Origin: a virus
Taxonomy: Duplodnaviria > Heunggongvirae > Uroviricota > Caudoviricetes
IMG/VR virus record: IMGVR_UViG_2706794674_000008
Direction: 5' to 3' (one strand)
Length of the DNA stretch: 36,253 nt
A model generated the notes under the pieces. The model saw nothing but the letters and a program-made list of their open reading frames with translations. It ran no database searches and was not told the DNA's origin. The position numbers and the translations under genes were made by a program. The number at the start of each line of letters is the position of its first letter. The first letter of the stretch is position 1. Positions 2,983 to 36,253 of this stretch are shown in pieces.

Positions 2983-3411
2983 ATGGGTTTTCGTAGCGCA
3001 TCAATTCTTACGTTGATTATTAGTGGGATTATTATCGGGTGCACTGATGCTGTATCGACAAATTATCATGACCGTACATCATATTACTCCGATAAAGCAA
3101 TAGAGACACAGTATGTGAGTTCATCTGAACGTACTTCTGATGTTAGTGAGGATATCCGTCTGTATGCCCATCAAATCAAGAGCGCCATCGAAAAACAGTT
3201 CGGGGATGCGAGTAAGTATTCAGGAAAAGAGTGTACACTGAGAATGCATATGGCCCCGAATGGCCTTCTACTGGAGGTTAAAAGAGAAAGTGGAGACCTC
3301 GATTTATGTCGTGAAGCGATGAATGCGATAAAGAATGCTGATATACCTGCCCCCCCTTCGCCGGAAGTATATAAAGTATTTCAAAATGGGGTGCTGGATT
3401 TTAAACCCTGA
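2983..3411 (+). CDS. Lipoprotein with C-terminal TolA domain III-like region (142 aa)
   Basis: Signal peptide with lipobox IIGC; C-terminal ...YAHQIKSAIEKQFGDASKYSGKECTLRMHMAPNGLLLEVKRESGDLDLCREAMNAIKNADIPAPPSPEVYKVFQNGVLDFKP closely resembles the C-terminus of E. coli TolA as I recall it (...AGQIKSAIESKFYDASSYAGKTCTLRIKLAPDGMLLDIKPEGGDPALCQAALAAAKLAKIPKPPSQAVYEVFKNAPLDFKP). Confidence 0.8.
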   Translation: MGFRSASILTLIISGIIIGCTDAVSTNYHDRTSYYSDKAIETQYVSSSERTSDVSEDIRLYAHQIKSAIEKQFGDASKYSGKECTLRMHMAPNGLLLEVKRESGDLDLCREAMNAIKNADIPAPPSPEVYKVFQNGVLDFKP

Positions 3412-3561: not shown

Positions 3562-3957
3562 GTGGGATTAAAGAAAATCGTTATGTTGACTTTTTGGGTC
3601 GGTTTTGTTGCGGGATGCACACCTTTACACCCTTCAGATTGCCACAAAACTACTGCTACAGGTAGTTGCAGTTCAGGACGCTGGGATGATCAGGATGAAT
3701 GGGGGGCGCAAGCGCGGGGAATCAGAGCTGCAATTAATGCCAAACTTGATGAGCCGCATAACTGGAAAGGGAAAAAATGCAGGTTGCATATGGAATTCTC
3801 TCAGGATGGCACGGCGTTAAAAATATCTACCAGTAACGGTGATAAAGCCTATTGCGAAGCGATAAAGTCCGCAGCTCATAAAGCCAAATTTCCGGCCTTC
3901 AACAATCCGGAAGTCTACAGAGATTTTCAGAAATCTGGCTTTGACATGCGAGGTTAG
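3562..3957 (+). CDS. Second, more diverged TolA domain III-like lipoprotein (131 aa), GTG start
   Basis: Strong RBS GAGGAG upstream of GTG; lipobox VAGC; C-terminal KKCRLHMEFSQDGTALKISTSNGDKAYCEAIKSAAHKAKFPAFNNPEVYRDFQKSGFD keeps the TolA-III Cys...Cys and EVY..FQ pattern; paralog of 2983..3411. Confidence 0.7.
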   Translation: MGLKKIVMLTFWVGFVAGCTPLHPSDCHKTTATGSCSSGRWDDQDEWGAQARGIRAAINAKLDEPHNWKGKKCRLHMEFSQDGTALKISTSNGDKAYCEAIKSAAHKAKFPAFNNPEVYRDFQKSGFDMRG

Positions 3958-4107: not shown

Positions 4108-4208
4108 TTGCATCGTCTCCAGCATATATATCAATTAAGGCTCTGATTGATGTGTCTGAAAGCCTACACATAATAACTATGCCATCCGTTCCGTGCGGAG
4201 GTGAGGCT

Positions 4209-4424
4209 ATGAAATCCATGGACAAAATTTCAACAGGCATTGCCTACGGCACCTCCGCAGGCAGTGCTGGCTACTGGTTTTTACAGTTGCTCGATAGAGT
4301 AACTCCGTCACAGTGGGCTGCAATCGGTGTGCTGGGTAGTCTGGTATTTGGCCTGCTGACGTACCTGACAAACCTTTATTTCAAGATTAAAGAAGATAAG
4401 CGCAAGGCTGCGAGAGGTGAATAA
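4209..4424 (+). CDS. S: Class II holin (phage 21 S-type pinholin), dual start motif MKSM (71-aa and 68-aa forms)
   Basis: RBS GGAGGTGAGG then ATG 4209 and in-frame ATG 4218; product [26 protein letters not shown]...[13 protein letters not shown] matches S21 pinholin as I recall it; two TM segments. Confidence 0.85.
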
Positions 4425-4921
4425 TGCCTCCATCATTACGAAAAGTCGTTGCTGCTGCTATTGGTGGCGGAGCAATTGCTATAGCATCAGTGTTAATCAC
4501 TGGCCCAAGTGGTAACGATGGTCTGGAAGGTGTCAGCTACATACCATACAAAGATATTGTTGGTGTATGGACTGTATGTCACGGGCATACAGGAAAAGAC
4601 ATCATGCTCGGTAAAACGTATACCAAAGCAGAATGCAAAACACTCTTGAATAAAGACCTTGCCACTGTCGCCAGACAAATTAACCCGTACATCAAAGTCG
4701 ATATACCGGAAACAACGCGCGGCGCTCTTTACTCGTTCGTTTACAACGTGGGTGCTGGTAATTTCAGAACATCGACGCTTCTTCGCAAAATAAACCAGGG
4801 CGATATCAAAGGCGCATGTGATCAGCTACGTCGCTGGACATATGCTGGCGGTAAGCAATGGAAAGGTCTCATGACTCGTCGTGAGATTGAGCGTGAAATC
4901 TGTTTGTGGGGTCAGCAATGA
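4424..4921 (+). CDS. R: SAR endolysin (T4-lysozyme-like muramidase with N-terminal signal-anchor-release domain), 165 aa
   Basis: Start overlaps holin stop (TAATG); Gly/Ala-rich weakly hydrophobic N-terminus [20 protein letters not shown] typical of SAR domains; phage 21 R-like. Confidence 0.85.
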
Positions 4922-5382
4922 ACAGAGTAACCGCGATTATCTCCGCTCTGGTTATCTGCATCATCGTCTGCCTGTCATGGGCTGTTAATCATTACCGTGA
5001 TAACGCCATTACCTACAAAGCCCAGCGCGACAAAAATGCCAGAGAACTGAAGCTGGCGAACGCGGCAATTACTGACATGCAGATGCGTCAGCGTGATGTT
5101 GCTGCGCTCGATGCAAAATACACGAAGGAGTTAGCTGATGCGAAAGCTGAAAATGATGCTCTGCGTGATGATGTTGCCGCTGGTCGTCGTCGGTTGCACA
5201 TCAAAGCAGTCTGTCAGTCAGTGCGTGAAGCCACCACCGCCTCCGGCGTGGATAATGCAGCCTCCCCCCGACTGGCAGACACCGCTGAACGGGATTATTT
5301 CACCCTCCGGGAACGACTGGTAATGATGCAGGCCCAACTTGAAGGTGCTCAGCAATACATAACCGAGCAGTGTTTAAAGTAA
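4918..5382 (+). CDS. Rz: i-spanin Rz
   Basis: ATGA overlap with endolysin stop; N-terminal TM then coiled-coil; nucleotide sequence matches lambda Rz as I recall it. Confidence 0.9.
5138..5323 (+). CDS. Rz1: o-spanin Rz1 (lipoprotein) embedded in +1 frame within Rz
   Basis: [24 protein letters not shown]...[19 protein letters not shown]; lipobox VVGC, proline-rich, fully nested in Rz. Confidence 0.85.
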
Positions 5383-5519
5383 AATCTTAACTACAATATG
5401 ATTCATTTTGATGATTGTTTCATAAGGAACAGTGAAGTAAGATCTAAGAGGAGTTAAATTTTATACAGTATAATCATAATATTGCAGCAAGGTGGTTATA
5501 ATTGAAAGAATATTTAGAT

Positions 5520-6977
5520 ATGAATACATCTCATGTAAGAGTTGTTACTCATATGTGTGGGTTCCTGGTTTGGCTCTATAGTCTTTCAATGTTGCCACCA
5601 ATGGTTGTAGCATTGTTTTATAAAGAAAAAAGCCTGTTCGTTTTCTTTATAACTTTCGTTATATTTTTTTGCATTGGTGGCGGAGCGTGGTATACAACTA
5701 AGAAATCTGGCATTCAATTACGTACCCGTGATGGGTTTATTATAATTGTAATGTTTTGGATTTTGTTTTCTGTTATTAGTGCATTCCCTTTATGGATTGA
5801 CTCAGAACTTAATTTAACGTTCATTGATGCTCTGTTTGAAGGGGTTTCTGGAATAACAACAACAGGAGCAACTGTAATTGATGATGTTAGTTCATTACCT
5901 CGGGCATATTTGTACTATCGGTCACAGTTAAATTTTATAGGTGGTTTAGGAGTTATTGTTCTGGCGGTTGCAGTATTGCCATTATTGGGTATTGGTGGTG
6001 CAAAGCTTTATCAGTCAGAAATGCCGGGGCCATTTAAGGATGACAAACTCACTCCCCGCCTGGCCGATACGTCACGGACACTGTGGATAACTTATTCTTT
6101 ATTAGGTATTGCTTGTATTGTCTGTTATAGACTTGCAGGAATGCCTTTGTTTGATGCTATTTGTCACGGGATTTCCACAGTTTCGCTTGGTGGTTTCTCA
6201 ACTCATAGCGAGAGTATCGGATATTTTAATAACTATTTGGTTGAGCTGGTGGCTGGTTCTTTTTCCCTGCTATCGGCTTTCAACTTCACTCTTTGGTATA
6301 TTGTTATTAGCAGAAAAACGATAAAACCTTTAATCAGAGATATTGAACTTCGTTTCTTTCTGTTAATAGCCTTAGGGGTGATCATTGTTACCTCTTTCCA
6401 GGTCTGGCATATAGGTATGTATGACTTGCATGGAAGTTTTATTCATTCGTTTTTTCTTGCCAGCTCCATGCTCACTGATAATGGTTTAGCTACGCAGGAT
6501 TATGCAAACTGGCCCACGCACACGATAGTGTTTTTGCTGTTGTCAAGTTTCTTTGGGGGATGTATAGGTTCAACCTGTGGTGGAATTAAGTCACTTCGAT
6601 TTCTTATACTTTTCAAACAAAGCAAACACGAGATAAATCAGCTTTCTCATCCCAGAGCGTTGTTGAGTGTAAATGTAGGAGGGAAGATAGTTACAGATCG
6701 TGTAATGAGGTCTGTATGGAGTTTCTTTTTTCTTTATACTCTCTTCACGGTGTTTTTTATACTGGTGTTAAATGGTATGGGATATGATTTTCTTACATCA
6801 TTTGCAACAGTGGCTGCATGTATTAATAATATGGGATTAGGTTTTGGGGCTACTGCATCGTCATTCGGAGTGCTTAATGACATTGCAAAATATTTAATGT
6901 GCATAGCTATGATTCTTGGTCGCCTTGAAATTTATCCTGTTATTATATTGTTTTCAGGTTTTTTTTGGCGCTCCTAA
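5520..6977 (+). CDS. trkG: TrkG/TrkH-family potassium uptake membrane protein, 485 aa (moron)
   Basis: Polytopic membrane protein starting MNTSHVRVVTHMCGFLVWLYSL, same length and N-terminus as E. coli K-12 Rac-prophage TrkG from memory; region visibly AT-rich compared with flanking phage genes. Confidence 0.85.
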   Translation: MNTSHVRVVTHMCGFLVWLYSLSMLPPMVVALFYKEKSLFVFFITFVIFFCIGGGAWYTTKKSGIQLRTRDGFIIIVMFWILFSVISAFPLWIDSELNLTFIDALFEGVSGITTTGATVIDDVSSLPRAYLYYRSQLNFIGGLGVIVLAVAVLPLLGIGGAKLYQSEMPGPFKDDKLTPRLADTSRTLWITYSLLGIACIVCYRLAGMPLFDAICHGISTVSLGGFSTHSESIGYFNNYLVELVAGSFSLLSAFNFTLWYIVISRKTIKPLIRDIELRFFLLIALGVIIVTSFQVWHIGMYDLHGSFIHSFFLASSMLTDNGLATQDYANWPTHTIVFLLLSSFFGGCIGSTCGGIKSLRFLILFKQSKHEINQLSHPRALLSVNVGGKIVTDRVMRSVWSFFFLYTLFTVFFILVLNGMGYDFLTSFATVAACINNMGLGFGATASSFGVLNDIAKYLMCIAMILGRLEIYPVIILFSGFFWRS

Positions 6978-7063: not shown

Positions 7064-7098
7064 CCCCAGTAGCACTGGCTGCTGGGGTGCGTTTTATT
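7064..7098 (+). terminator. Terminator-like hairpin downstream of trkG
   Basis: ccccagtagc-actg-gctgctgggg (one G-U pair) followed by tgcgttttatt. Confidence 0.35.
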
Positions 7099-7114: not shown

Positions 7115-7903
7115 ATGAGCGAGAAATTAAAGATAGTCTATCGCCCATTACAAGAATTGTCACCGTATGCGCACAACGCCAGGACGCACAGTACTGAGCA
7201 GGTGGCACAACTGGTAGAAAGTATTAAGCAATTCGGCTGGACTAATCCGGTGCTGATTGACGAAAAGGGCGAAATTATTGCGGGTCACGGTCGTGTTATG
7301 GCGGCTGAAATGCTCAAAATGGATTCTGTTCCGGTCATTGTTCTGTCTGGCCTGACGGATGAGCAGAAAAAGGCGTACCGCCTGGCAGATAATCGCCTGC
7401 CGATGAATGCTGGCTGGGATGAAGATCTGTTGCGGATGGAGCTGTCGGACCTAATCAATGCTGATTTTGATGTCTCCCTGACAGGCTTCATCCCGGCAGA
7501 AATTGATGAACTGTTGACGGATGTTTTGCCCGGTACAGGAAATGAGGAGGAGCCGTATACGACGAAAATTGATACGCCTGTTTATGAGCCGTCAGGCGGT
7601 AAACCGGATATCAGTGAACTGTACGACGATACGAAAACTCAGGAGCTGATCAGCCGGATACGTTCGGCGTCCCTTGATCCTGATATTGAGAAATTCCTCC
7701 TGTGTGCAGCAGAACGTCACACGGTGTTTAATTTCAGCAGAATTGCGGACTATTACGCTCATGCCCCCGCTGAAATTCAGTGCCTTTTCGAGGAGTCGGC
7801 GCTGGTGATCATTGATTATCAGCAGGCTATTGAAAATGGATTTGTCCGAATGACGCAGCGCATGGTGGAGATCATGCATGGCGGGGAGGAGGAATATGCG
7901 TGA
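7115..7903 (+). CDS. ParB-like nuclease domain protein (ParB/Srx N-terminal fold), 262 aa
   Basis: N-terminal YRPLQELSPYAHNARTHSTEQVAQLVESIKQFGWTNPVLIDEKGEIIAGHGRVMAA resembles the ParB N-terminal/sulfiredoxin-type domain; located just upstream of the packaging genes. Confidence 0.7.
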   Translation: MSEKLKIVYRPLQELSPYAHNARTHSTEQVAQLVESIKQFGWTNPVLIDEKGEIIAGHGRVMAAEMLKMDSVPVIVLSGLTDEQKKAYRLADNRLPMNAGWDEDLLRMELSDLINADFDVSLTGFIPAEIDELLTDVLPGTGNEEEPYTTKIDTPVYEPSGGKPDISELYDDTKTQELISRIRSASLDPDIEKFLLCAAERHTVFNFSRIADYYAHAPAEIQCLFEESALVIIDYQQAIENGFVRMTQRMVEIMHGGEEEYA

Positions 7904-8828
7904 TGATTTTTGCGCCTTTATTCTGACTCACGGGCGACCGGACAAAGTTCTGACTTACCGGACGTTGCGTCGTGCTGGCTATACCGGGAAAATTTTTATC
8001 GTTGTTGATGATGAAGATAAGACACGGCATCAGTACATGGCTGAATTTGGTGAACAGGTGCTGGTATTTTCCAAAGCCGATATTGCTAGTCGTTTTGACG
8101 AAGCCGATAATTTTAGTGACCGCCGCTCAATTTTTTACGCCCGTAATGCCTGTTTCGACCAGGCAAAACTGGTCGGGTGTAAATACTTCATTCAGCTCGA
8201 TGATGATTATCACGAGTTCCAGTTTCGGGTGGATCGCAACTATGACCAGGCCTATTTCCCGATAAGGAAACTGGATGAGATCCTTTCTGAAATGCTTGCG
8301 TACTACGAATCAATACCTGCTCTTTCCATCGCTATGTCGCAGGGCGGGGATTTTCTTGGTGACAATGGCGGCCATGCTTCGTGGGTGAAACGCAAGGCAA
8401 TGAACAGCTTTATCTGTTCGGTTGATCGACCGTTCTCATTCATGGGGCGCATTAACGAGGATGTGAATACGTACACGAATCTCGGTCGCTGTGGTGAATT
8501 GTTTATGACGATCGGTGCTGTCCAGTTAGGGCAGAAACAGACGCAGAAAAACAGCGGCGGAATGACCGAGCTGTATCTGGATTCCGGAACCTACGTTAAA
8601 AGTTTTTACTCCGTCATGTATGCGCCGTCGTGCGTAAAAATCTCACTTATGGGTGCCAGTCATAAACGCATTCACCATCAGGTCACCTGGAACAACGCTG
8701 CAGTAAAAATCCTTCACGAAAAATACAGGAAGAAGACACCCTGCATATCAATGGGGGTGACAAATGATTCCGTATTCGAAAGTCGAGTCTCTGGCAGCGT
8801 GCCGGATGACTGCACAACAAATCGCTGA
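7896..8828 (+). CDS. Hypothetical protein with glycosyltransferase-A-like sequence motifs (possible nucleotide-sugar transferase)
   Basis: Strong RBS GGGGAGGAGGAA before ATG 7896; motifs FILTHGRPDK, IFIVVDDEDK and DxD-like IQLDDDYHEF recall the GT-A N-terminal Rossmann core; function not established. Confidence 0.5.
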   Translation: MRDDFCAFILTHGRPDKVLTYRTLRRAGYTGKIFIVVDDEDKTRHQYMAEFGEQVLVFSKADIASRFDEADNFSDRRSIFYARNACFDQAKLVGCKYFIQLDDDYHEFQFRVDRNYDQAYFPIRKLDEILSEMLAYYESIPALSIAMSQGGDFLGDNGGHASWVKRKAMNSFICSVDRPFSFMGRINEDVNTYTNLGRCGELFMTIGAVQLGQKQTQKNSGGMTELYLDSGTYVKSFYSVMYAPSCVKISLMGASHKRIHHQVTWNNAAVKILHEKYRKKTPCISMGVTNDSVFESRVSGSVPDDCTTNR

Positions 8829-11397: not shown

Positions 11398-12804
11398 ATG
11401 GCTGATATATCAACACCCAACCTCGACTATAACGATATGCTGGAGGCGTGGGATATTAACGACGCACTGATGGGCGGTACGCTTGAAATGCGCAGGCAGG
11501 GGGAAAATTATCTCCCAAAATGGCCTAACGAAGATGAAGACGCTTATAAAAAACGCCTGTCTGTGGCTACGCTACTTCCTGTGTATGAAGAAAGCATCAA
11601 GCAAAATATTGGGCGCATATTTGCAGAGCCGACAGTATTGAGTGAGGAAACGCCGGCAAAAATCAGGGAATATGCAGAAAATATCGACATGGAGGGGAGC
11701 CGACTGGATGTGTGGGCGCAGCAATTTTTCAGCCTCGCATTTCAGTATGGTGTGGCACATGCGCTGGTGGACTATCCACGAACGGATATGAAAGAGATTC
11801 GGACAAAAGCCGATGAAAACGCGACCGGTGGTCGTCCGTACGTTACGATGCTGAATCCACGCCAGGTTATTGGATGGAAATCGAAAGTTGAAAAAGGGAA
11901 AGTTGTTCTCACTGATTTGCGTATAAAAGAGGTCATCATTATTGATGGTGATGATTTCGGGCAGAAGAAGGTGGAGCAGATCCGCCATATTATGCCCCGT
12001 CGAGTTGAAATTTATCGACGTAGCGAAGGCACTAATGGCGAATCTGTCTGGACGCTTCATGAGTCATGGAATACCAGCCGTGATGATATTCCTCTGGTAA
12101 CACTGTACACGAAGAAAACAGGATTTATGCGTGGTACACCGCCATTGCTTAATCTTGGCTTGCTGAATATCAAGCACTGGCAAAGCCAGAGCGAGCAGGA
12201 CAATATTCTTCATGTTGCCCGCGTTCCATTGCTGGTGGCCTACGGGCTGGACAGGAATGAAGAACTGACGGTTGGTGCATCCACCGCTACGATTTTTGAG
12301 GACAGAACAAAAAATGGCCTCGAATATGTTGAACATAGTGGCGCAGCGATAGAATCTGGCGAAACATCACTTGAGAAGCTGGAAAATCAGATGCGTCATG
12401 CCGGCGCTAAACTTCTGCGTGCTGAAAATACATCCACCAAATCTGTTGATCAGACTAATGAAGAGCGAATGCAGGAAAACTCGCCGCTTTATACAATGGC
12501 GAACTCCCTCGAAGATGCCCTCGATAATATTCTCCAGATAATGGCGGAATGGATCGGAGAGAGTTGCGGTGGCAATGTGGATGTGCGCACTGAACTGGAT
12601 GTATCTGCCCAGGTGTTTGACTCATCCTCCGCGCTGGCTGTTCAGTCATTGCGTCAGGGCGGTGATATACGTCAGATTGATGCGGTTCGGGTGTTGCAGG
12701 CGTTGAAATTTATCGATCAGGATTCCCGTCCAGAGGAAGTGATCGATGAATTAAAAAATCAGAGTGTAATGCTGATGGAAATCAATGATGCAAACCGTGA
12801 ATGA
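11398..12804 (+). CDS. Portal protein, 468 aa
   Basis: Position immediately after terminase large subunit; acidic C-terminus; typical size. Confidence 0.7.
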   Translation: MADISTPNLDYNDMLEAWDINDALMGGTLEMRRQGENYLPKWPNEDEDAYKKRLSVATLLPVYEESIKQNIGRIFAEPTVLSEETPAKIREYAENIDMEGSRLDVWAQQFFSLAFQYGVAHALVDYPRTDMKEIRTKADENATGGRPYVTMLNPRQVIGWKSKVEKGKVVLTDLRIKEVIIIDGDDFGQKKVEQIRHIMPRRVEIYRRSEGTNGESVWTLHESWNTSRDDIPLVTLYTKKTGFMRGTPPLLNLGLLNIKHWQSQSEQDNILHVARVPLLVAYGLDRNEELTVGASTATIFEDRTKNGLEYVEHSGAAIESGETSLEKLENQMRHAGAKLLRAENTSTKSVDQTNEERMQENSPLYTMANSLEDALDNILQIMAEWIGESCGGNVDVRTELDVSAQVFDSSSALAVQSLRQGGDIRQIDAVRVLQALKFIDQDSRPEEVIDELKNQSVMLMEINDANRE

Positions 12805-32600: not shown

Positions 32601-33017
32601 GATTACGGCACTAAATCCACGAATAACACTGGTGCGCATACCCATAGTTTAAGTGGCAGCACGAATGCAGCTGGTAATCACAGCCATAGAGATGGCCGTC
32701 GATTTAACCCCAGTGTTTTTAAAGATACTTATCAATATGGTTATACAAGCTCAGGTCAAAATACCTGGGGTGTACAAGGCTCAGTAGGTATGTCTACGGG
32801 GTGGTTAGCTAATACCAGTACAGATGGTAATCATAGCCACTCACTGTCCGGCACAGCAGCATCTGCAGGTGCACACGCGCATACTGTCGGTATTGGTGCT
32901 CATACGCACTCCGTTGCGATTGGTTCACATGGACACACCATCACCGTTAACGCTGCTGGTAACGCGGAAAACACCGTCAAAAACATCGCATTTAACTATA
33001 TTGTGAGGCTTGCATAA
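29619..33017 (+). CDS. stf: Side tail fibre protein (Stf/StfR-like), about 1132 aa
   Basis: [26 protein letters not shown]... N-terminus as in lambda Stf; long Ala/Ser/Thr-rich repeat region; C-terminal His-x-His repeats ([53 protein letters not shown]). Confidence 0.9.
29960..31010 (+). repeat. Low-complexity Ala/Ser/Thr-rich coding repeats inside stf, with three near-identical AAKTSETNA(A/K)AS units
   Basis: Repeated KTSETNA-containing blocks in translation; source of multiple spurious ORFs in other frames/strand. Confidence 0.7.
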
Positions 33018-33592
33018 TGGCATTCAGAATGAGTGAACAACCACGGACCATAAAAATTTATAATCTGCTGGCCGGAACTAATGAATTTATTGGTGAAGGT
33101 GACGCATACATTCCGCCTCATACAGGTCTGCCAGCAAACAGTACCGATATTGCACCGCCAGATATTCCGGCTGGCTTCGTGGCTGTTTTCAACAGTGATG
33201 ATGCATCGTGGCATCTTGTTGAAGACCATCGGGGTAAAACAGTTTATGACGTGGCATCAGGGGACGCGTTATTTATTTCTGAACTCGGTCCGTTACCGGA
33301 AAATGTTACCTGGTTATCGCCGGAAGGGGAATATCAGAAGTGGAACGGCACAGCCTGGGTGAAAGATGCAGAAGCAGAAAAACTATTCCGGATCCGGGAG
33401 GCGGAAGAAACAAAAAACAGCCTGATGCAGGTAGCCAGTGAGCATATTGCGCCGCTTCAGGATGCGGTAGATCTTGAGATCGCAACGGAGGAAGAGAAAT
33501 CGTTACTGGCCGCATGGAAGACATATCGGGTGTTGTTGAATCGTGTTGATACATCACTATCTCCAGATATCGAGTGGCCAAGTCAACCATAA
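33017..33592 (+). CDS. tfa: Tail fibre assembly chaperone (Tfa-like), 191 aa
   Basis: TAATG overlap with stf stop; [48 protein letters not shown]... typical of lambda Tfa. Confidence 0.85.
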
Positions 33593-33598
33593 ATCAAT

Positions 33599-33619
33599 AT
33601 CCCCTGCAATGCAGGGGAT
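33599..33619. terminator. Hairpin between convergent tfa and sopB (possible bidirectional terminator)
   Basis: atcccctgc-aat-gcaggggat, perfect 9-bp stem. Confidence 0.45.
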
Positions 33620-33624
33620 AATTC

Positions 33625-34590
33625 TTAATTATCAGTAGATTGTTCCTCTAGTAACAACTCAATTTTGCTTAGTATTTCTTTAGATATTTTGCGGCTATCA
33701 ATTTTTATAGTTACAAAATTCCCTTTATATCTAGCCGTGATCCCTTCCCCATATTTTTTCTCGTCTTTTGTTTTTTCCTCGTCGCCAACCAGAACAGAGT
33801 CAGATAATATTTGTATAATCCGTGAAGCTTCTAAATCCTCGCCGTTTTTTTTTATTGTCAGAAGATGATGAGCAGCATTGCTCATGGCAGCCATGTTTTT
33901 TTTGTAAATCTTAAACAAAGAATCTCCAGCACGAGCTGACAGTTCTCCTGGATGATTGAAGATAGCTAATATATCTTTTGGTAGACCAGCTGTATTAATA
34001 CAGCGAGTGATAATATTTCTATCTATATTTTCAGCCTCGGCCAATGCTTTAACGTTACCATCAAAGTCATTTAGCTTGCGTAAGTATCTCTTTCCTCTTT
34101 CGTATGCACTAATAGGCCTATAATCGTTACCAATTTGGGATAACCAATGCATCTGTTCATCGTCGAGATCACCAATTAAGACGCGATAGTCACATCCTGT
34201 TAATATCGCTGCTTTTCTTCTACGTGAGCCGTCAGCGACTTCAACGATTCCAGATACTTTTCTGGCGAAAGCTGGATTTTGTTGTCCAGACGTTAGAAAA
34301 GATGGGATTAAATCGGCTAGAGAGGATTCATTTAATAAATCTTGATCGCGTTCATTACCTAGCCATACCATTGTTGCCATTTCAACTTTATCTGCGGGAA
34401 TTGTCTCTAACTTAAAGTTAACATTACGTCCGCATACTGGCAAAGTTATGCTGTTACCGGTTAATGAACTCAGTTGACGTTTTAAATCACCAACCATAGG
34501 TGATACGGGCTGATGTTCAGGGGCATGATGATTATTACTCATAATGCGATTAATATCTGGAGCATTTTTTAGAAGAGAGCGCTGTTTCAT
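33625..34590 (-). CDS. sopB: Plasmid partition protein SopB (ParB-type CBP), 321 aa
   Basis: ...ITLPVCGRNVNF...WLGNERDQDLL...LIPSFLTSGQQNPAFARKVSGIVEVADGSRRRKAAILT...NDYRPISAYERG... closely parallels F-plasmid SopB from memory. Confidence 0.85.
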   Translation of the reverse strand: MKQRSLLKNAPDINRIMSNNHHAPEHQPVSPMVGDLKRQLSSLTGNSITLPVCGRNVNFKLETIPADKVEMATMVWLGNERDQDLLNESSLADLIPSFLTSGQQNPAFARKVSGIVEVADGSRRRKAAILTGCDYRVLIGDLDDEQMHWLSQIGNDYRPISAYERGKRYLRKLNDFDGNVKALAEAENIDRNIITRCINTAGLPKDILAIFNHPGELSARAGDSLFKIYKKNMAAMSNAAHHLLTIKKNGEDLEASRIIQILSDSVLVGDEEKTKDEKKYGEGITARYKGNFVTIKIDSRKISKEILSKIELLLEEQSTDN

Positions 34591-35756
34591 TATTCGTTCT
34601 CCCAGCGAGGTTTTATTAGATCATCAAAAATTTCTCTGCAAACAGGGTCCCATATAGAAACAGCATTTCTCCATGCATTCAATGTTGAACGTTGGTTTGC
34701 TGCTTGTTCAAATACTGTTCTCATTTTTATCTGGCCTTTACCTACTTCATCGGTAACGCGTACAACCTGACGTAATACCATTGATCCCCATGTATTTCTT
34801 ATTTGTTCTTCCATCCATCGTGATTGATTCCCTGTAGTGAGACTATATTTAGTCAGAAGTAAGCGAACGGTTGGCTCAAATCCACCTAGGTCAACGCTTT
34901 CCAATAGATCGAGAAGCATTGTGAAAAACTGTAGAACAGAAGCGTAATCAAATAATTCTGCAGGTGTAGCAACAACAATAACGTCAGCGGCACAAACAAC
35001 GTTAATGGTTCCTGTACCGAGGTTCGGAGCACTATCTATAACGATAACATCGTAGTTATCCCAAACTGATTCAATAGCTGCGCGCAGCATAAGGTGTGGA
35101 GGATGAGGCAATTTACCCTGAGCATGATATTGCATGAGATCTGTTTCTATACGATGTAAAGCTAGGCAGCTAGGGATAATGTCTAGCCCAGGCCAACATG
35201 TTGGCTTTATAGCATATTCAGCGTTATCGCGTTCTCCTAAGTAAAATGGCAGTAAAGTATCCTCGGCATGGATATGTAAATCAGGAACATAACCGTGATA
35301 CATAGAGGCTGTACCTTGAGGATCGTTACCTTCAACCAAAAGAACACGATGACCTTGTAATGCTAACCATTGAGCTTGATGTACCGCAGACGATGTTTTA
35401 TAAACGCCGCCTTTGTGTGACATAACGGCAAGAACAACAGGGTTTTTATCTTGTGGTCGTTGGTTTGGGTTGCCAAAAACTGCTCGCATACTGTTGATTT
35501 GATCTATGGTATAACCAGCACGACGTTCAATTCTTCCTCTCATTTCAAAGTCAGGTGCAGGTAAACGCCCGCTCTTCTCAGCATCTCTAATTGCTTGAGG
35601 AGTTACACCAATTAAATCTGCTACTTCAGTAATACCCCATCGGCGGGTGATACGCCGAGCTTCAGGACTATCATCACCGAATTGAGCGATAGCAATTGCT
35701 TGGGTCATTTCTTGACCTCTCGTAACACAATCTTGCAATAGCTTTTTCAAAGACAT
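34590..35756 (-). CDS. sopA: Plasmid partition ATPase SopA (ParA-type, Walker-type), 388 aa
   Basis: Same length as F SopA; deviant Walker A box in SHKGGVYKTSSAV, IDSAPNLG, NDPQGTASMYHG; RBS GGAGA before ATG. Confidence 0.9.
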   Translation of the reverse strand: MSLKKLLQDCVTRGQEMTQAIAIAQFGDDSPEARRITRRWGITEVADLIGVTPQAIRDAEKSGRLPAPDFEMRGRIERRAGYTIDQINSMRAVFGNPNQRPQDKNPVVLAVMSHKGGVYKTSSAVHQAQWLALQGHRVLLVEGNDPQGTASMYHGYVPDLHIHAEDTLLPFYLGERDNAEYAIKPTCWPGLDIIPSCLALHRIETDLMQYHAQGKLPHPPHLMLRAAIESVWDNYDVIVIDSAPNLGTGTINVVCAADVIVVATPAELFDYASVLQFFTMLLDLLESVDLGGFEPTVRLLLTKYSLTTGNQSRWMEEQIRNTWGSMVLRQVVRVTDEVGKGQIKMRTVFEQAANQRSTLNAWRNAVSIWDPVCREIFDDLIKPRWENE

Positions 35757-35764
35757 ACTGTCAT

Positions 35765-35858
35765 CTCCAGCTTGTAACTTTGCTTAATAATTAAATCTTT
35801 GCTTATTTCTAGCAAATTTGCATGAAAAAGGCAAAGCAAAAAGAAAAACGCAAAGGAG
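35765..35858 (-). promoter_or_regulatory. sopA promoter-operator with four CTTTGC/GCAAAG hexamers
   Basis: CTTTGC at 35768-35773 and 35787-35792, GCAAAG at 35831-35836 and 35850-35855, immediately upstream of sopA; F SopA is reported to bind CTTTGC repeats in its operator. Confidence 0.5.
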
Positions 35859-36043
35859 AATTTTTAAGCTAAATCATCTTTTGTTCCCCTCCCGAAATGC
35901 ATAAAACGAACAACAACATAATCATAAGTAATTGATATTTATTATATTTTTTGAAGAAAGGAAATCATGTAAAACTAGGGAAACATGATAAGAATCATCA
36001 ATGAGATACGTTTTCTCTATTAGTTCTCCCAACCTTACCAATA

Positions 36044-36175
36044 CAAGAACACAAATAAAGAACACAAAAACTAAGTAATGATGCAAACATAATAAAGAAC
36101 ACAAATAAAGAATTAAAGCTAAATGTTAAATAAAGCAGTACACAAAATGAGAATATTACACTAAATAAGAACACT
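36044..36175. repeat. AT-rich direct repeats of AAGAACA(C) motif (two identical 16-mers aagaacacaaataaag) leading into the terminal palindrome
   Basis: 16-mer at 36045-36060 and 36095-36110; further AAGAACA copies at 36167 and inside palindrome arm (36179). Confidence 0.45.
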
Positions 36176-36253
36176 AATCAAGAACATAACGAAACATAAT
36201 TCCCCATTATACGCGCGTATAATGGGGAATTATGTTTCGTTATGTTCTTGATT
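36176..36253. repeat. Perfect 78-bp palindrome (2 x 39 bp) with alternating-CG centre; candidate protelomerase target site (telRL/tos-like)
   Basis: aatcaagaacataacgaaacataattccccattatacgc|gcgtataatggggaattatgtttcgttatgttcttgatt; the central CCATTATACGCGCGTATAATGG matches the phage N15 telO core as I recall it; palindrome runs to the last base of the window. Confidence 0.7.

Follow-up and report, generated by a model that had tools for sequence, protein, structure and literature searches.

What does a viral glycosyltransferase modify when no enzyme that could supply its usual acceptor is recognised beside it? The question is raised by two overlapping genes, ynaK and a glycosyltransferase (GT) gene, which stand just before the terminase genes of a tailed-virus sequence from IMG/VR (IMGVR_UViG_2706794674_000008; 36,253 nucleotides, the whole of which is referred to here as the window). 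The interpretation that we favour, with moderate confidence, is that the pair forms a late-expressed, partner-dependent DNA glycosylation module, which would act on phage DNA around packaging. Glycosylation of phage DNA is a central part of the contest with restriction enzymes, CRISPR, type IV nucleases and DNA glycosylases, and it has supplied enzymes for epigenetic sequencing. The window represents the late part of a lambdoid, Rac-type Escherichia coli prophage, and the 2.1 kb around the pair is 100% identical to chromosomal E. coli prophages in which recET, kilR, sieB and ydaSTUV lie to one side and lambda-like tail genes to the other. An earlier note, made from the letters of the window alone, had proposed a ParB-like nuclease domain in the first protein and a sugar transferase in the second. 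Both open reading frames (ORFs) lie on the + strand and overlap as it described, the second giving 310 aa from the ATG at 7896, and the terminase subunit genes do follow (Table 1).

The second protein can be assigned, from profile, fold and motif searches together, to the TAGT family, with a GT-A fold and an intact R...DDD...ED signature. The longest ORF runs from 7878 to 8828 (316 aa); the 310-aa form begins at the start used by RefSeq (WP_001614535.1), which is also the start conserved in homologues. Residue numbers here follow the 316-aa form. The match to Pfam TAGT (PF20691) has an E-value of 4.1e-34 and a score of 118.8 bits (cut-off 27.5), and covers positions 4–205 of the 205 in the profile; PHROG 842 is matched with E = 8e-104, and the RefSeq name is 'GREB1-related protein'. 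An NCBIfam search of the GT gave no useful match. A Foldseek search with the AlphaFold2 (AF2) model, which has a mean pLDDT of about 65 and is confident only at residues 1 to ∼155, returned the GT-A enzymes SpsA (E = 3.6e-5), SunS, ThuS and TarS, over a range of E from 4e-5 to 2e-3. The three motifs that had been read as reminiscent of nucleotide-sugar transferases are real, and their key residues, R20 (HGRPD), D44/D45/E46/D47 (VVDDEDK) and D108–D110 (QLDDDY), are invariant or nearly so in homologues down to 58% identity, as are E194–D195 invariant in the close family. Across 12 sequences, reaching down to 26% identity to the HHTV-2 protein that stands first in the alignment, the Arg, the DDD and the D195 position do not vary. 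R...DDD...ED is the reported signature of phage GT-A DNA glycosyltransferases and of the trypanosome enzyme JGT (bioRxiv 10.1101/2023.12.21.572611). Thus the transferase assignment of the earlier note has been borne out by both profile and fold.

The characterised members of TAGT act on modified bases in DNA, to which they add sugar (PMC13216743; bioRxiv 10.1101/2023.12.21.572611). One of them is the beta-glucosyl-HMC-alpha-glucosyltransferase of phages T2 and T6, which falls under the same Pfam and PHROG entries as the GT; the T6 enzyme has been modelled by AlphaFold3 as a GT-A protein (PMC13216743). The T-even enzyme adds a second glucose to glucosylated 5-hydroxymethylcytosine (5hmC) that is made by a dedicated pathway, whereas the prophage annotation contains neither a 5hmC pathway nor a first glucosyltransferase. 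The GT-A enzymes of the phage TET clusters (methyltransferase/5mYOX) and JGT share the signature and fold of the GT. The TET-cluster enzymes act after replication and have terminase and ParB genes near them, as here, but they use 5hmC or 5-hydroxymethyluracil (5hmU) produced by an adjacent dioxygenase, and none was found beside this GT. The GT is a TAGT member by profile, fold and motif, but the contextual hallmark of the group, an enzyme that supplies the acceptor, was not found with it.

No hydrophobic run in the GT exceeds six residues and the protein is predicted to be soluble. A gtrABC-type O-antigen conversion enzyme was considered and rejected, there being no membrane segment, no GtrA or GtrC neighbour, and a late-operon position between lysis and terminase genes, away from the integrase; the earlier note had judged such a role improbable, rightly on this evidence. 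The host range points the same way. In tblastn searches of GenBank phages with the GT, relatives of 39–47% identity were found in Lactobacillus gasseri and L. delbrueckii phages, Nocardia phage NTR1, 190-kb Vibrio phages and the haloarchaeal virus HHTV-2, with a more distant one (27.5%) in a Porphyromonas phage; T4-like Aeromonas phages match at 23% identity, and the T-even enzymes are too distant to appear. Since the GT is conserved over Gram-negative, Gram-positive, actinobacterial and haloarchaeal hosts with unrelated envelopes, an envelope-specific acceptor is excluded.

The first protein, YnaK, begins with a ParB/Srx-fold domain (aa 1 to ∼100), for which both the ParB N-terminal fold and the profile matches were found. 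Pfam ParB_N (PF02195) is matched with E = 8.7e-7 and 29.3 bits (cut-off 26.3), and the full-length protein matches PHROG 620, 'ParB-like partition protein', with E = 1.7e-90. The domain had thus been correctly recognised, but its label as a nuclease finds no support: the closest relatives are NTP-binding ParB/Srx domains and, closest of all in sequence, ParB domains that occur as fusions with phage DNA methyltransferases (PHROG 498, E = 6e-51; PADLOC MTase_II, E = 1.5e-38). In place of the Box II motif GERR of ParB, YnaK has GHGR, with His58 for the Glu and Gly for the first Arg. G57, G59 and R60 are invariant in the YnaK family, as is N93 of Box III. From these residues, NTP binding by the domain is plausible and hydrolysis uncertain. 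A Pfam search of YnaK detected no helix-turn-helix (HTH), no parS-binding and no ParB dimerisation domain, the score against the partition-ParB model TIGR00180 is 38 bits, below the cut-off of 58, and no ParA gene adjoins ynaK. YnaK as a canonical ParB of a ParABS partition system was rejected on these counts, and a separate SopA/SopB-type pair is present in the window.

The ynaK gene of E. coli K-12 is a truncated remnant of the full-length 262-aa gene; 536-nucleotide partial matches agree with this, as does the label 'pseudogene, missing C-terminus' that RefSeq/PGAP gives to the intact 262-aa ORF. The label stands at L001:20116-20373 in NZ_CP058571.1 (positions 7115–7372 of the window), apparently on account of a reference model based on the truncated 87-aa K-12 YnaK. 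As a consequence of this call, full-length YnaK is missing from many genome annotations.

What lies beyond the ParB domain proves to be the more constant part of the protein. The C-terminal region, here called the TAGT-partner domain, opens with a linear motif, PYTTKIDTPVYEPS, of which residues Y148, T149, K151, P155, Y157 and P159 are invariant in the family, and which lies in predicted disorder (pLDDT <50 at YnaK residues 136–166). The motif is followed by a helical domain of the pattern FLxxAAxRHxxFNY..IADYYAH...LMExSALVIID. The AF2 model of YnaK has a mean pLDDT of about 65, its C-terminal half being of low confidence. Comparison of the partner domain with Pfam and with PDB sequences gave chance-level matches only, whilst a search of 1.84 billion cluster representatives (50% identity) matched 1,194 clusters at E ≤1e-3 and about 1,000 at E ≤1e-10. 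The domain is acidic as a rule, with an isoelectric point (pI) of 4.1–5.1 in 11 of 12 family members. It also occurs by itself: proteins of 129–148 aa, equivalent to YnaK residues ∼135–262, stand upstream of the GT in some loci, and these retain the YTxKIxxPxYxP motif.

The association of the partner domain with the GT was followed in both directions. Viral contigs retrieved with the GT query were reduced to 73 non-redundant loci at 85% identity; a first scan had given mostly near-identical E. coli prophages and was repeated from a divergent first sequence. A partner homologue lies upstream of the GT in all 71 loci that have upstream DNA. It is full-length and directly upstream in 64, consists of the C-terminal domain only in five, is cut by the contig end in one, and in one more is separated from the GT by a radical-SAM gene; the remaining two loci lack upstream DNA. 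The reverse search, with the partner domain, gave 78 further viral loci, and in 77 of 77 with enough DNA a GT follows on the same strand, overlapping or abutting the partner gene in 66 and one or two genes away in 11. These 77 loci were picked by similarity to the stand-alone partner domain, and the dioxygenase screen covered only the GT-query loci. The partner and the GT thus form an obligate module. Because the partner domain also occurs alone, with a GT downstream in every locus covered, the constant core is partner domain plus GT, with a ParB domain often joined to it at the N-terminus.

These statistics largely refute the view that the two genes are unrelated, YnaK being a partition protein or nuclease and the GT a lysogenic-conversion enzyme of the envelope, which we regard as very improbable. 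Database names such as 'chromosome (plasmid) partitioning protein' on ynaK would agree with it, and a prophage-encoded GT-A enzyme that modifies teichoic acid, TarP, is known (bioRxiv 10.1101/2023.12.21.572611). However, the genes are translationally coupled as well as obligately paired, ynaK has neither an adjacent ParA nor an HTH or parS-binding domain and shares the window with another partition pair, and the GT has no membrane segment, sits in a late operon and is conserved over unrelated envelopes, including that of an archaeon.

The pair occurs in viruses of E. coli, Yersinia, Lactobacillus, Nocardia, Porphyromonas and a haloarchaeon, and in every GenBank record opened, except the Vibrio phages, a ParB-like gene overlaps the start of the GT; in the Vibrio phages the partner domain alone precedes it. 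As these hosts share only nucleic acids and central metabolites, the acceptor would be a universal one, most simply DNA. Another universal target, such as RNA or a small-molecule or nucleotide signal, with the module serving an anti-defence or metabolic purpose and the ParB fold working not as a DNA clamp but as an enzyme dependent on NTP, would also suit the breadth of hosts. We think it quite improbable, as many loci do without the ParB domain, the domains nearest to it in sequence are fused to DNA methyltransferases, and the steady position of the module beside packaging or replication genes suggests DNA.

That position differs with the form of the partner. Pairs with a ParB domain precede the small (TerS) and large (TerL) terminase subunit genes, and the same order recurs in many IMG/VR contigs. 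A family of TerS-like proteins (cluster 3), to which the small ORF downstream of the GT in the window (orf83) belongs, directly follows the GT in 32 of the 73 loci and lies within two genes of it in 35; it is the commonest gene directly 3' of the GT in other viruses. The commonest TerL cluster (cluster 2, 38 loci) is found at the second or third position after the GT in 34, where other TerL-type clusters also occur. In the Lactobacillus (phi jlb1 and c5), Nocardia NTR1 and Porphyromonas phages the terminase comes within a few genes after the pair, in HHTV-2 eight small ORFs intervene, and in Lactobacillus phage c5 the pair is directly next to cos, the first genes after it. Pairs without a ParB domain, in contrast, sit among DnaB, DnaC-like, YqaJ and phosphoesterase genes. 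Both settings, packaging and replication, are DNA-handling modules.

In the window the order ynaK, GT, orf83, TerS, TerL is closely packed, each gene abutting or overlapping the next. The GT start codon overlaps the ynaK stop by 8 nucleotides, as ATGCGTGA, and a strong Shine-Dalgarno sequence, GGGGAGGAGG, precedes it at 7883–7892; in related loci, too, partner/GT junctions are as a rule overlapping or abutting. From the overlaps and the Shine-Dalgarno arrangement, ynaK and the GT are almost certainly translationally coupled and co-transcribed with the packaging genes. A terminator-like hairpin lies between trkG and ynaK, and a late transcript would need to read through it.

A working mechanism can be put together from these elements. 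The acidic C-terminal partner domain (pI 4.4) would bind the GT, perhaps through the basic C-terminal half of the enzyme (pI 9.7), which is also the part that AF2 cannot place in the monomer, and would then activate or position it. The ParB/Srx domain, where present, plausibly binds NTP and might load the pair onto double-stranded DNA in an NTP-gated manner. As the coupled genes head the packaging operon, the likeliest substrate would be newly replicated phage DNA about to enter packaging, and late expression with the terminase fits modification of such DNA. The likeliest benefit would be that the injected DNA is shielded from host nucleases. Thus we infer a DNA acceptor, a contact between partner and GT, a loading role for ParB and a protective function, and with these the DNA modification and anti-restriction role that the earlier note had raised.

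Three precedents support the involvement of a ParB fold in such chemistry. The 5mYOX thymine dioxygenase requires the protein ParB176, and only on double-stranded DNA (PMC13229309); DpdB is a ParB-fold ATPase whose activity is raised by DpdA-DNA (PMC10164549); and ParB–methyltransferase fusions have been described (PMC12704722). By layout, YnaK may be likened to ParB176: in each, a ParB domain of the nucleotide-binding type is followed by a short helical segment, then by ∼50 aa of disordered linker and lastly by a C-terminal domain, and in neither is a DNA-binding domain recognisable. They differ in their partners, a cognate post-replicative thymine dioxygenase for ParB176 (PMC13229309) and a glycosyltransferase for YnaK, and in that ParB176 needs both its domains, whereas the C-terminal domain of YnaK also occurs as a stand-alone protein, with a GT after it in each of the 77 reverse-search loci. 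In DpdB/DpdA and in the methyltransferase fusions a ParB-fold NTPase domain is coupled to an enzyme that modifies DNA bases, much as we propose for the ParB domain of YnaK; the chemistry there is transglycosylation or methylation, however, and here sugar transfer. The helical C-terminal domain of DpdB also differs from that of YnaK, and in the methyltransferase proteins ParB is fused to the enzyme, whilst YnaK is a separate, translationally coupled protein. Finally, the ynaK–GT locus fits the pattern of the ParB-Tls loci, in which genes for a ParB-domain protein and a DNA-modifying enzyme come right before the terminase. A role in DNA modification at packaging has been predicted, and only predicted, for such loci (Iyer et al. 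2013 NAR, to the extent that it is cited in PMC4738411). The literature covered, which did not extend to the 2013 paper that defined TAGT and these loci, yielded no account of the partner domain or of its obligate pairing with the GT. If the proposal is true, the activation of DNA-modifying enzymes by ParB folds, newly shown for dioxygenases, extends to glycosyltransferases.

Several observations weigh against DNA glycosylation, the chemistry being the weak step. All characterised DNA-acting relatives need a hydroxyl from 5hmC, 5hmU or a sugar on the DNA, and no supplier enzyme is recognised here: the Rac-type prophage annotation lists neither a TET/JBP enzyme nor a thymidylate-synthase-like hydroxymethylase nor a cytosine C5-methyltransferase. 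Nor does any acceptor-making family recur among the 1,560 neighbour proteins of the 73 loci (25 commonest Pfam families listed), a search by blast clustering and Pfam scans of representatives which left out a batch of 93 proteins and leaves room for rare dioxygenase neighbours. We know of no nucleotide-sugar transferase that glycosylates canonical DNA bases. On the protein side, the partner protein has a net charge of about –24 and no detected DNA-binding domain, the Glu of Box II that ParB needs for CTP hydrolysis is a His in YnaK, and the AF2 models of both YnaK and the GT are of low confidence in their C-terminal halves. We found no report of modified DNA in any phage carrying the module, and literature searches on ynaK, on HHTV-2 and on ParB-like proteins with glycosyltransferases yielded no functional study.

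One way to meet the missing acceptor is that the two proteins form a self-sufficient enzyme, which adds sugar to DNA without a hydroxymethyl-pyrimidine, at a canonical base or at some other universal feature of DNA. This bolder form of the proposal we advance only tentatively and think somewhat unlikely; if true, it would be a direct sugar modification of DNA undescribed so far, shared by bacterial and archaeal viruses and carried by about one-sixth of complete E. coli genomes. The 3'-OH end made by the terminase was considered as the acceptor and set aside, as by our reasoning its modification would prevent the cos ends from being ligated in cos phages, c5 among them.

The acceptor might instead be a protein, the GT glycosylating the Tyr/Thr motif of its partner, or an adjacent packaging or virion protein, and so regulating or protecting that protein. 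This would dissolve the missing-acceptor problem altogether, and the partner motif, invariant, hydroxyl-rich and in predicted disorder, looks suitable; the pairing, moreover, is obligate even without the ParB domain. In addition, and contrary to our interpretation, the animal TAGT relative GREB1 is reported to O-GlcNAcylate a protein (PMC7968844). A conserved linear motif would, however, equally be given by a docking peptide. The Foldseek matches include the peptide glycosyltransferases SunS and ThuS as well as glycogenin, but with TM-scores of 0.3–0.4 they mirror the shared GT-A fold only. As the ParB-less forms belong to replication modules distant from virion genes, and the characterised viral members of the family all act on DNA, we consider a protein acceptor unlikely. 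In either case the outcome would be of interest: a DNA acceptor would mean a new DNA modification chemistry, and a protein acceptor the first viral TAGT enzyme to act on protein.

Other enzymes near the pair seem to bear mostly on the donor rather than the acceptor. Inserts between partner and GT in other loci comprise a His-phosphatase/cytidylyltransferase fusion, a cytidylyltransferase alone, a CofD-like/HAD protein with an NTP-transferase, SAM-methyltransferase-like proteins and radical SAM enzymes (loci L106:936-1904, L245:4351-5331, L234:4323-5309, L204:4377-4793, L205:4344-5111 and L229:3107-5477). NAD-dependent sugar epimerases are found nearby in five loci and a DegT-type aminotransferase in one. 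These inserted and nearby enzymes look like ones that make or tailor donor sugars, and such donor diversification is typical of DNA hypermodification clusters (bioRxiv 10.1101/2023.12.21.572611). The radical SAM inserts are the sole candidates noticed for a step that generates the acceptor.

These inserts, radical SAM or methyltransferase-like and confined to a minority of loci, would also suit the notion that the module is half of a pathway, glycosylating 5hmC or 5hmU from an enzyme encoded elsewhere or since lost, and here either idle or acting only on foreign modified DNA. The TAGT family is named after its association with TET/JBP, and in 5mYOX contigs the commonest neighbours are glycosyltransferases (31%), ParB (27%) and terminases (19%) (PMC13229309). 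Yet no 5mYOX or hydroxymethylase is present in the prophage annotation and none is recurrent in the neighbourhoods scanned, where the GT, and not a dioxygenase, is the immediate neighbour of the ParB-like gene in 70 of 71 loci. Unlike an idle remnant, the pair stays whole, its catalytic residues unvarying, across hundreds of divergent clusters, as it does in 867 of the 5,426 complete E. coli genomes, and the GT is constant after the partner domain in the reverse-search sample, for all that this sample resembles the stand-alone domain and went without a dioxygenase screen. A half pathway is therefore, to our minds, a shade less probable even than a protein acceptor.

The pairing gives a context to TAGT genes that had appeared to have none. 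'Solitary' TAGT homologues of unknown function were reported in 288 of 753 phage genomes (PMC13216743), and the ∼65% of GT contigs without a 5mYOX or ThyS neighbour were set aside in another survey (bioRxiv 10.1101/2023.12.21.572611). Many such genes are not alone, but come with a hitherto unnamed partner domain, to which a ParB-fold domain is often fused, in a module that needs no recognisable hydroxymethylase. As the module is carried by an inducible type of E. coli prophage, the target of glycosylation is addressable by standard E. coli genetics and nucleoside mass spectrometry.

Table 1. Features of the ynaK–GT locus and its surroundings, numbered from the first nucleotide of the window
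Feature	Position	Strand	Basis or remarks
Lysis cassette	4152-5382		
trkG moron, low GC	5502-6977		Pfam TrkH, E 1e-144
Terminator-like hairpin and T-run, between trkG and ynaK	7064-7087	+	Consensus scan; pattern match only
Full-length YnaK, 262 aa	7115-7903	+	ParB/Srx-fold N-terminal domain, acidic helical segment, linker, conserved C-terminal partner domain
GHGR motif, aa 57-60, in place of ParB Box II (GERR)	7283-7294	+	Alignment to Noc/ParB chains
TAGT-partner domain, aa ∼141-262	7535-7900	+	Acidic, pI 4.4; no Pfam family
Linear motif PYTTKIDTPVYEPS, aa 147-160, at start of partner domain	7553-7594	+	Family consensus YTxKIxxPxYxP
Coupling junction ynaK/GT	7883-7903	+	Shine-Dalgarno GGGGAGGAGG, then ATGCGTGA
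Predicted TAGT-family GT-A glycosyltransferase, 310 aa	7896-8828	+	Pfam, PHROG, Foldseek, motifs
GT motif HGRPD	7929-7943	+	
GT motif VVDDEDK	8001-8021	+	
GT motif QLDDDY	8193-8210	+	
GT motif NEDVNTY	8454-8474	+	
Terminase-small-subunit-like protein (orf83), 83 aa	8764-9015	+	PHROG 309, E 8e-23
Terminase small subunit, 364 aa	9019-10113	+	Pfam Terminase_2, PHROG 51
Terminase large subunit, 436 aa	10085-11395	+	Pfam Terminase_6N, Terminase_6C
DUF4055-annotated ORF, presumed portal	11398-12804		

Downstream of the pair, orf83 overlaps the GT tail by 65 nucleotides; a tail of ∼20 aa, which is carried by the E. coli GT and missing in most homologues, produces this overlap. A representative of the orf83 family matches Pfam HTH_Tnp_1_2 and Sf6_terminase, PADLOC found no defence-system match for orf83 or for the GT, and orf83 precedes a second terminase small subunit (364 aa, Terminase_2). 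Amongst the 5,426 complete E. coli genomes, 1,607 match the region partly, and the 867 mentioned above carry at least 80% of it.

Upstream, the potassium transporter gene trkG, a moron that separates the lysis cassette from the packaging operon, has a GC content of ∼0.39–0.41 compared with ∼0.48 in its neighbours. Its place is taken in a Yersinia relative (L005:2180-3332) by genes whose products are a heat-labile-enterotoxin-like A subunit (Enterotoxin_a/Scabin-like) and an LT-IIB subunit. Ahead of the lysis cassette, at 2983–3411 and 3562–3957, are adjacent genes for two proteins with TolA C-terminal domains (Pfam TolA, E = 2e-23 and 1e-14), which might hinder colicins or phages from entering by the Tol-dependent route.

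The partition pair of the window lies on the – strand at 33625–35756, past the tail-fibre genes, and consists of a SopB-type centromere-binding protein (SoPB_HTH, E = 8.5e-25) and a ParA/SopA ATPase. All eight E. coli records that span at least 80% of 32900–36253 are 46–68 kb long, and five are confirmed plasmids; the best plasmid match encodes a protelomerase and the replication protein CyRepA1, as N15-type phage-plasmids do. The window thus seems to derive from a phage-plasmid at its right end and is Rac-like at its left.

Two further observations come from related genomes. A phage with the ParB–GT pair has two Glycos_transf_2 genes just after its capsid gene (L002:15837-16894 and L003:8659-9716); their products may glycosylate the virion and seem to be apart from the ParB–GT module. 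In the early region of the Rac-type prophage of NZ_CP058571.1 (L001:9758-10720), a 320-aa hypothetical protein with a weak, sub-threshold match to a HEPN/RES N-terminal domain (E = 2e-4) could be a prophage-borne defence or toxin gene product, and its gene is followed by a frameshifted hypothetical gene.

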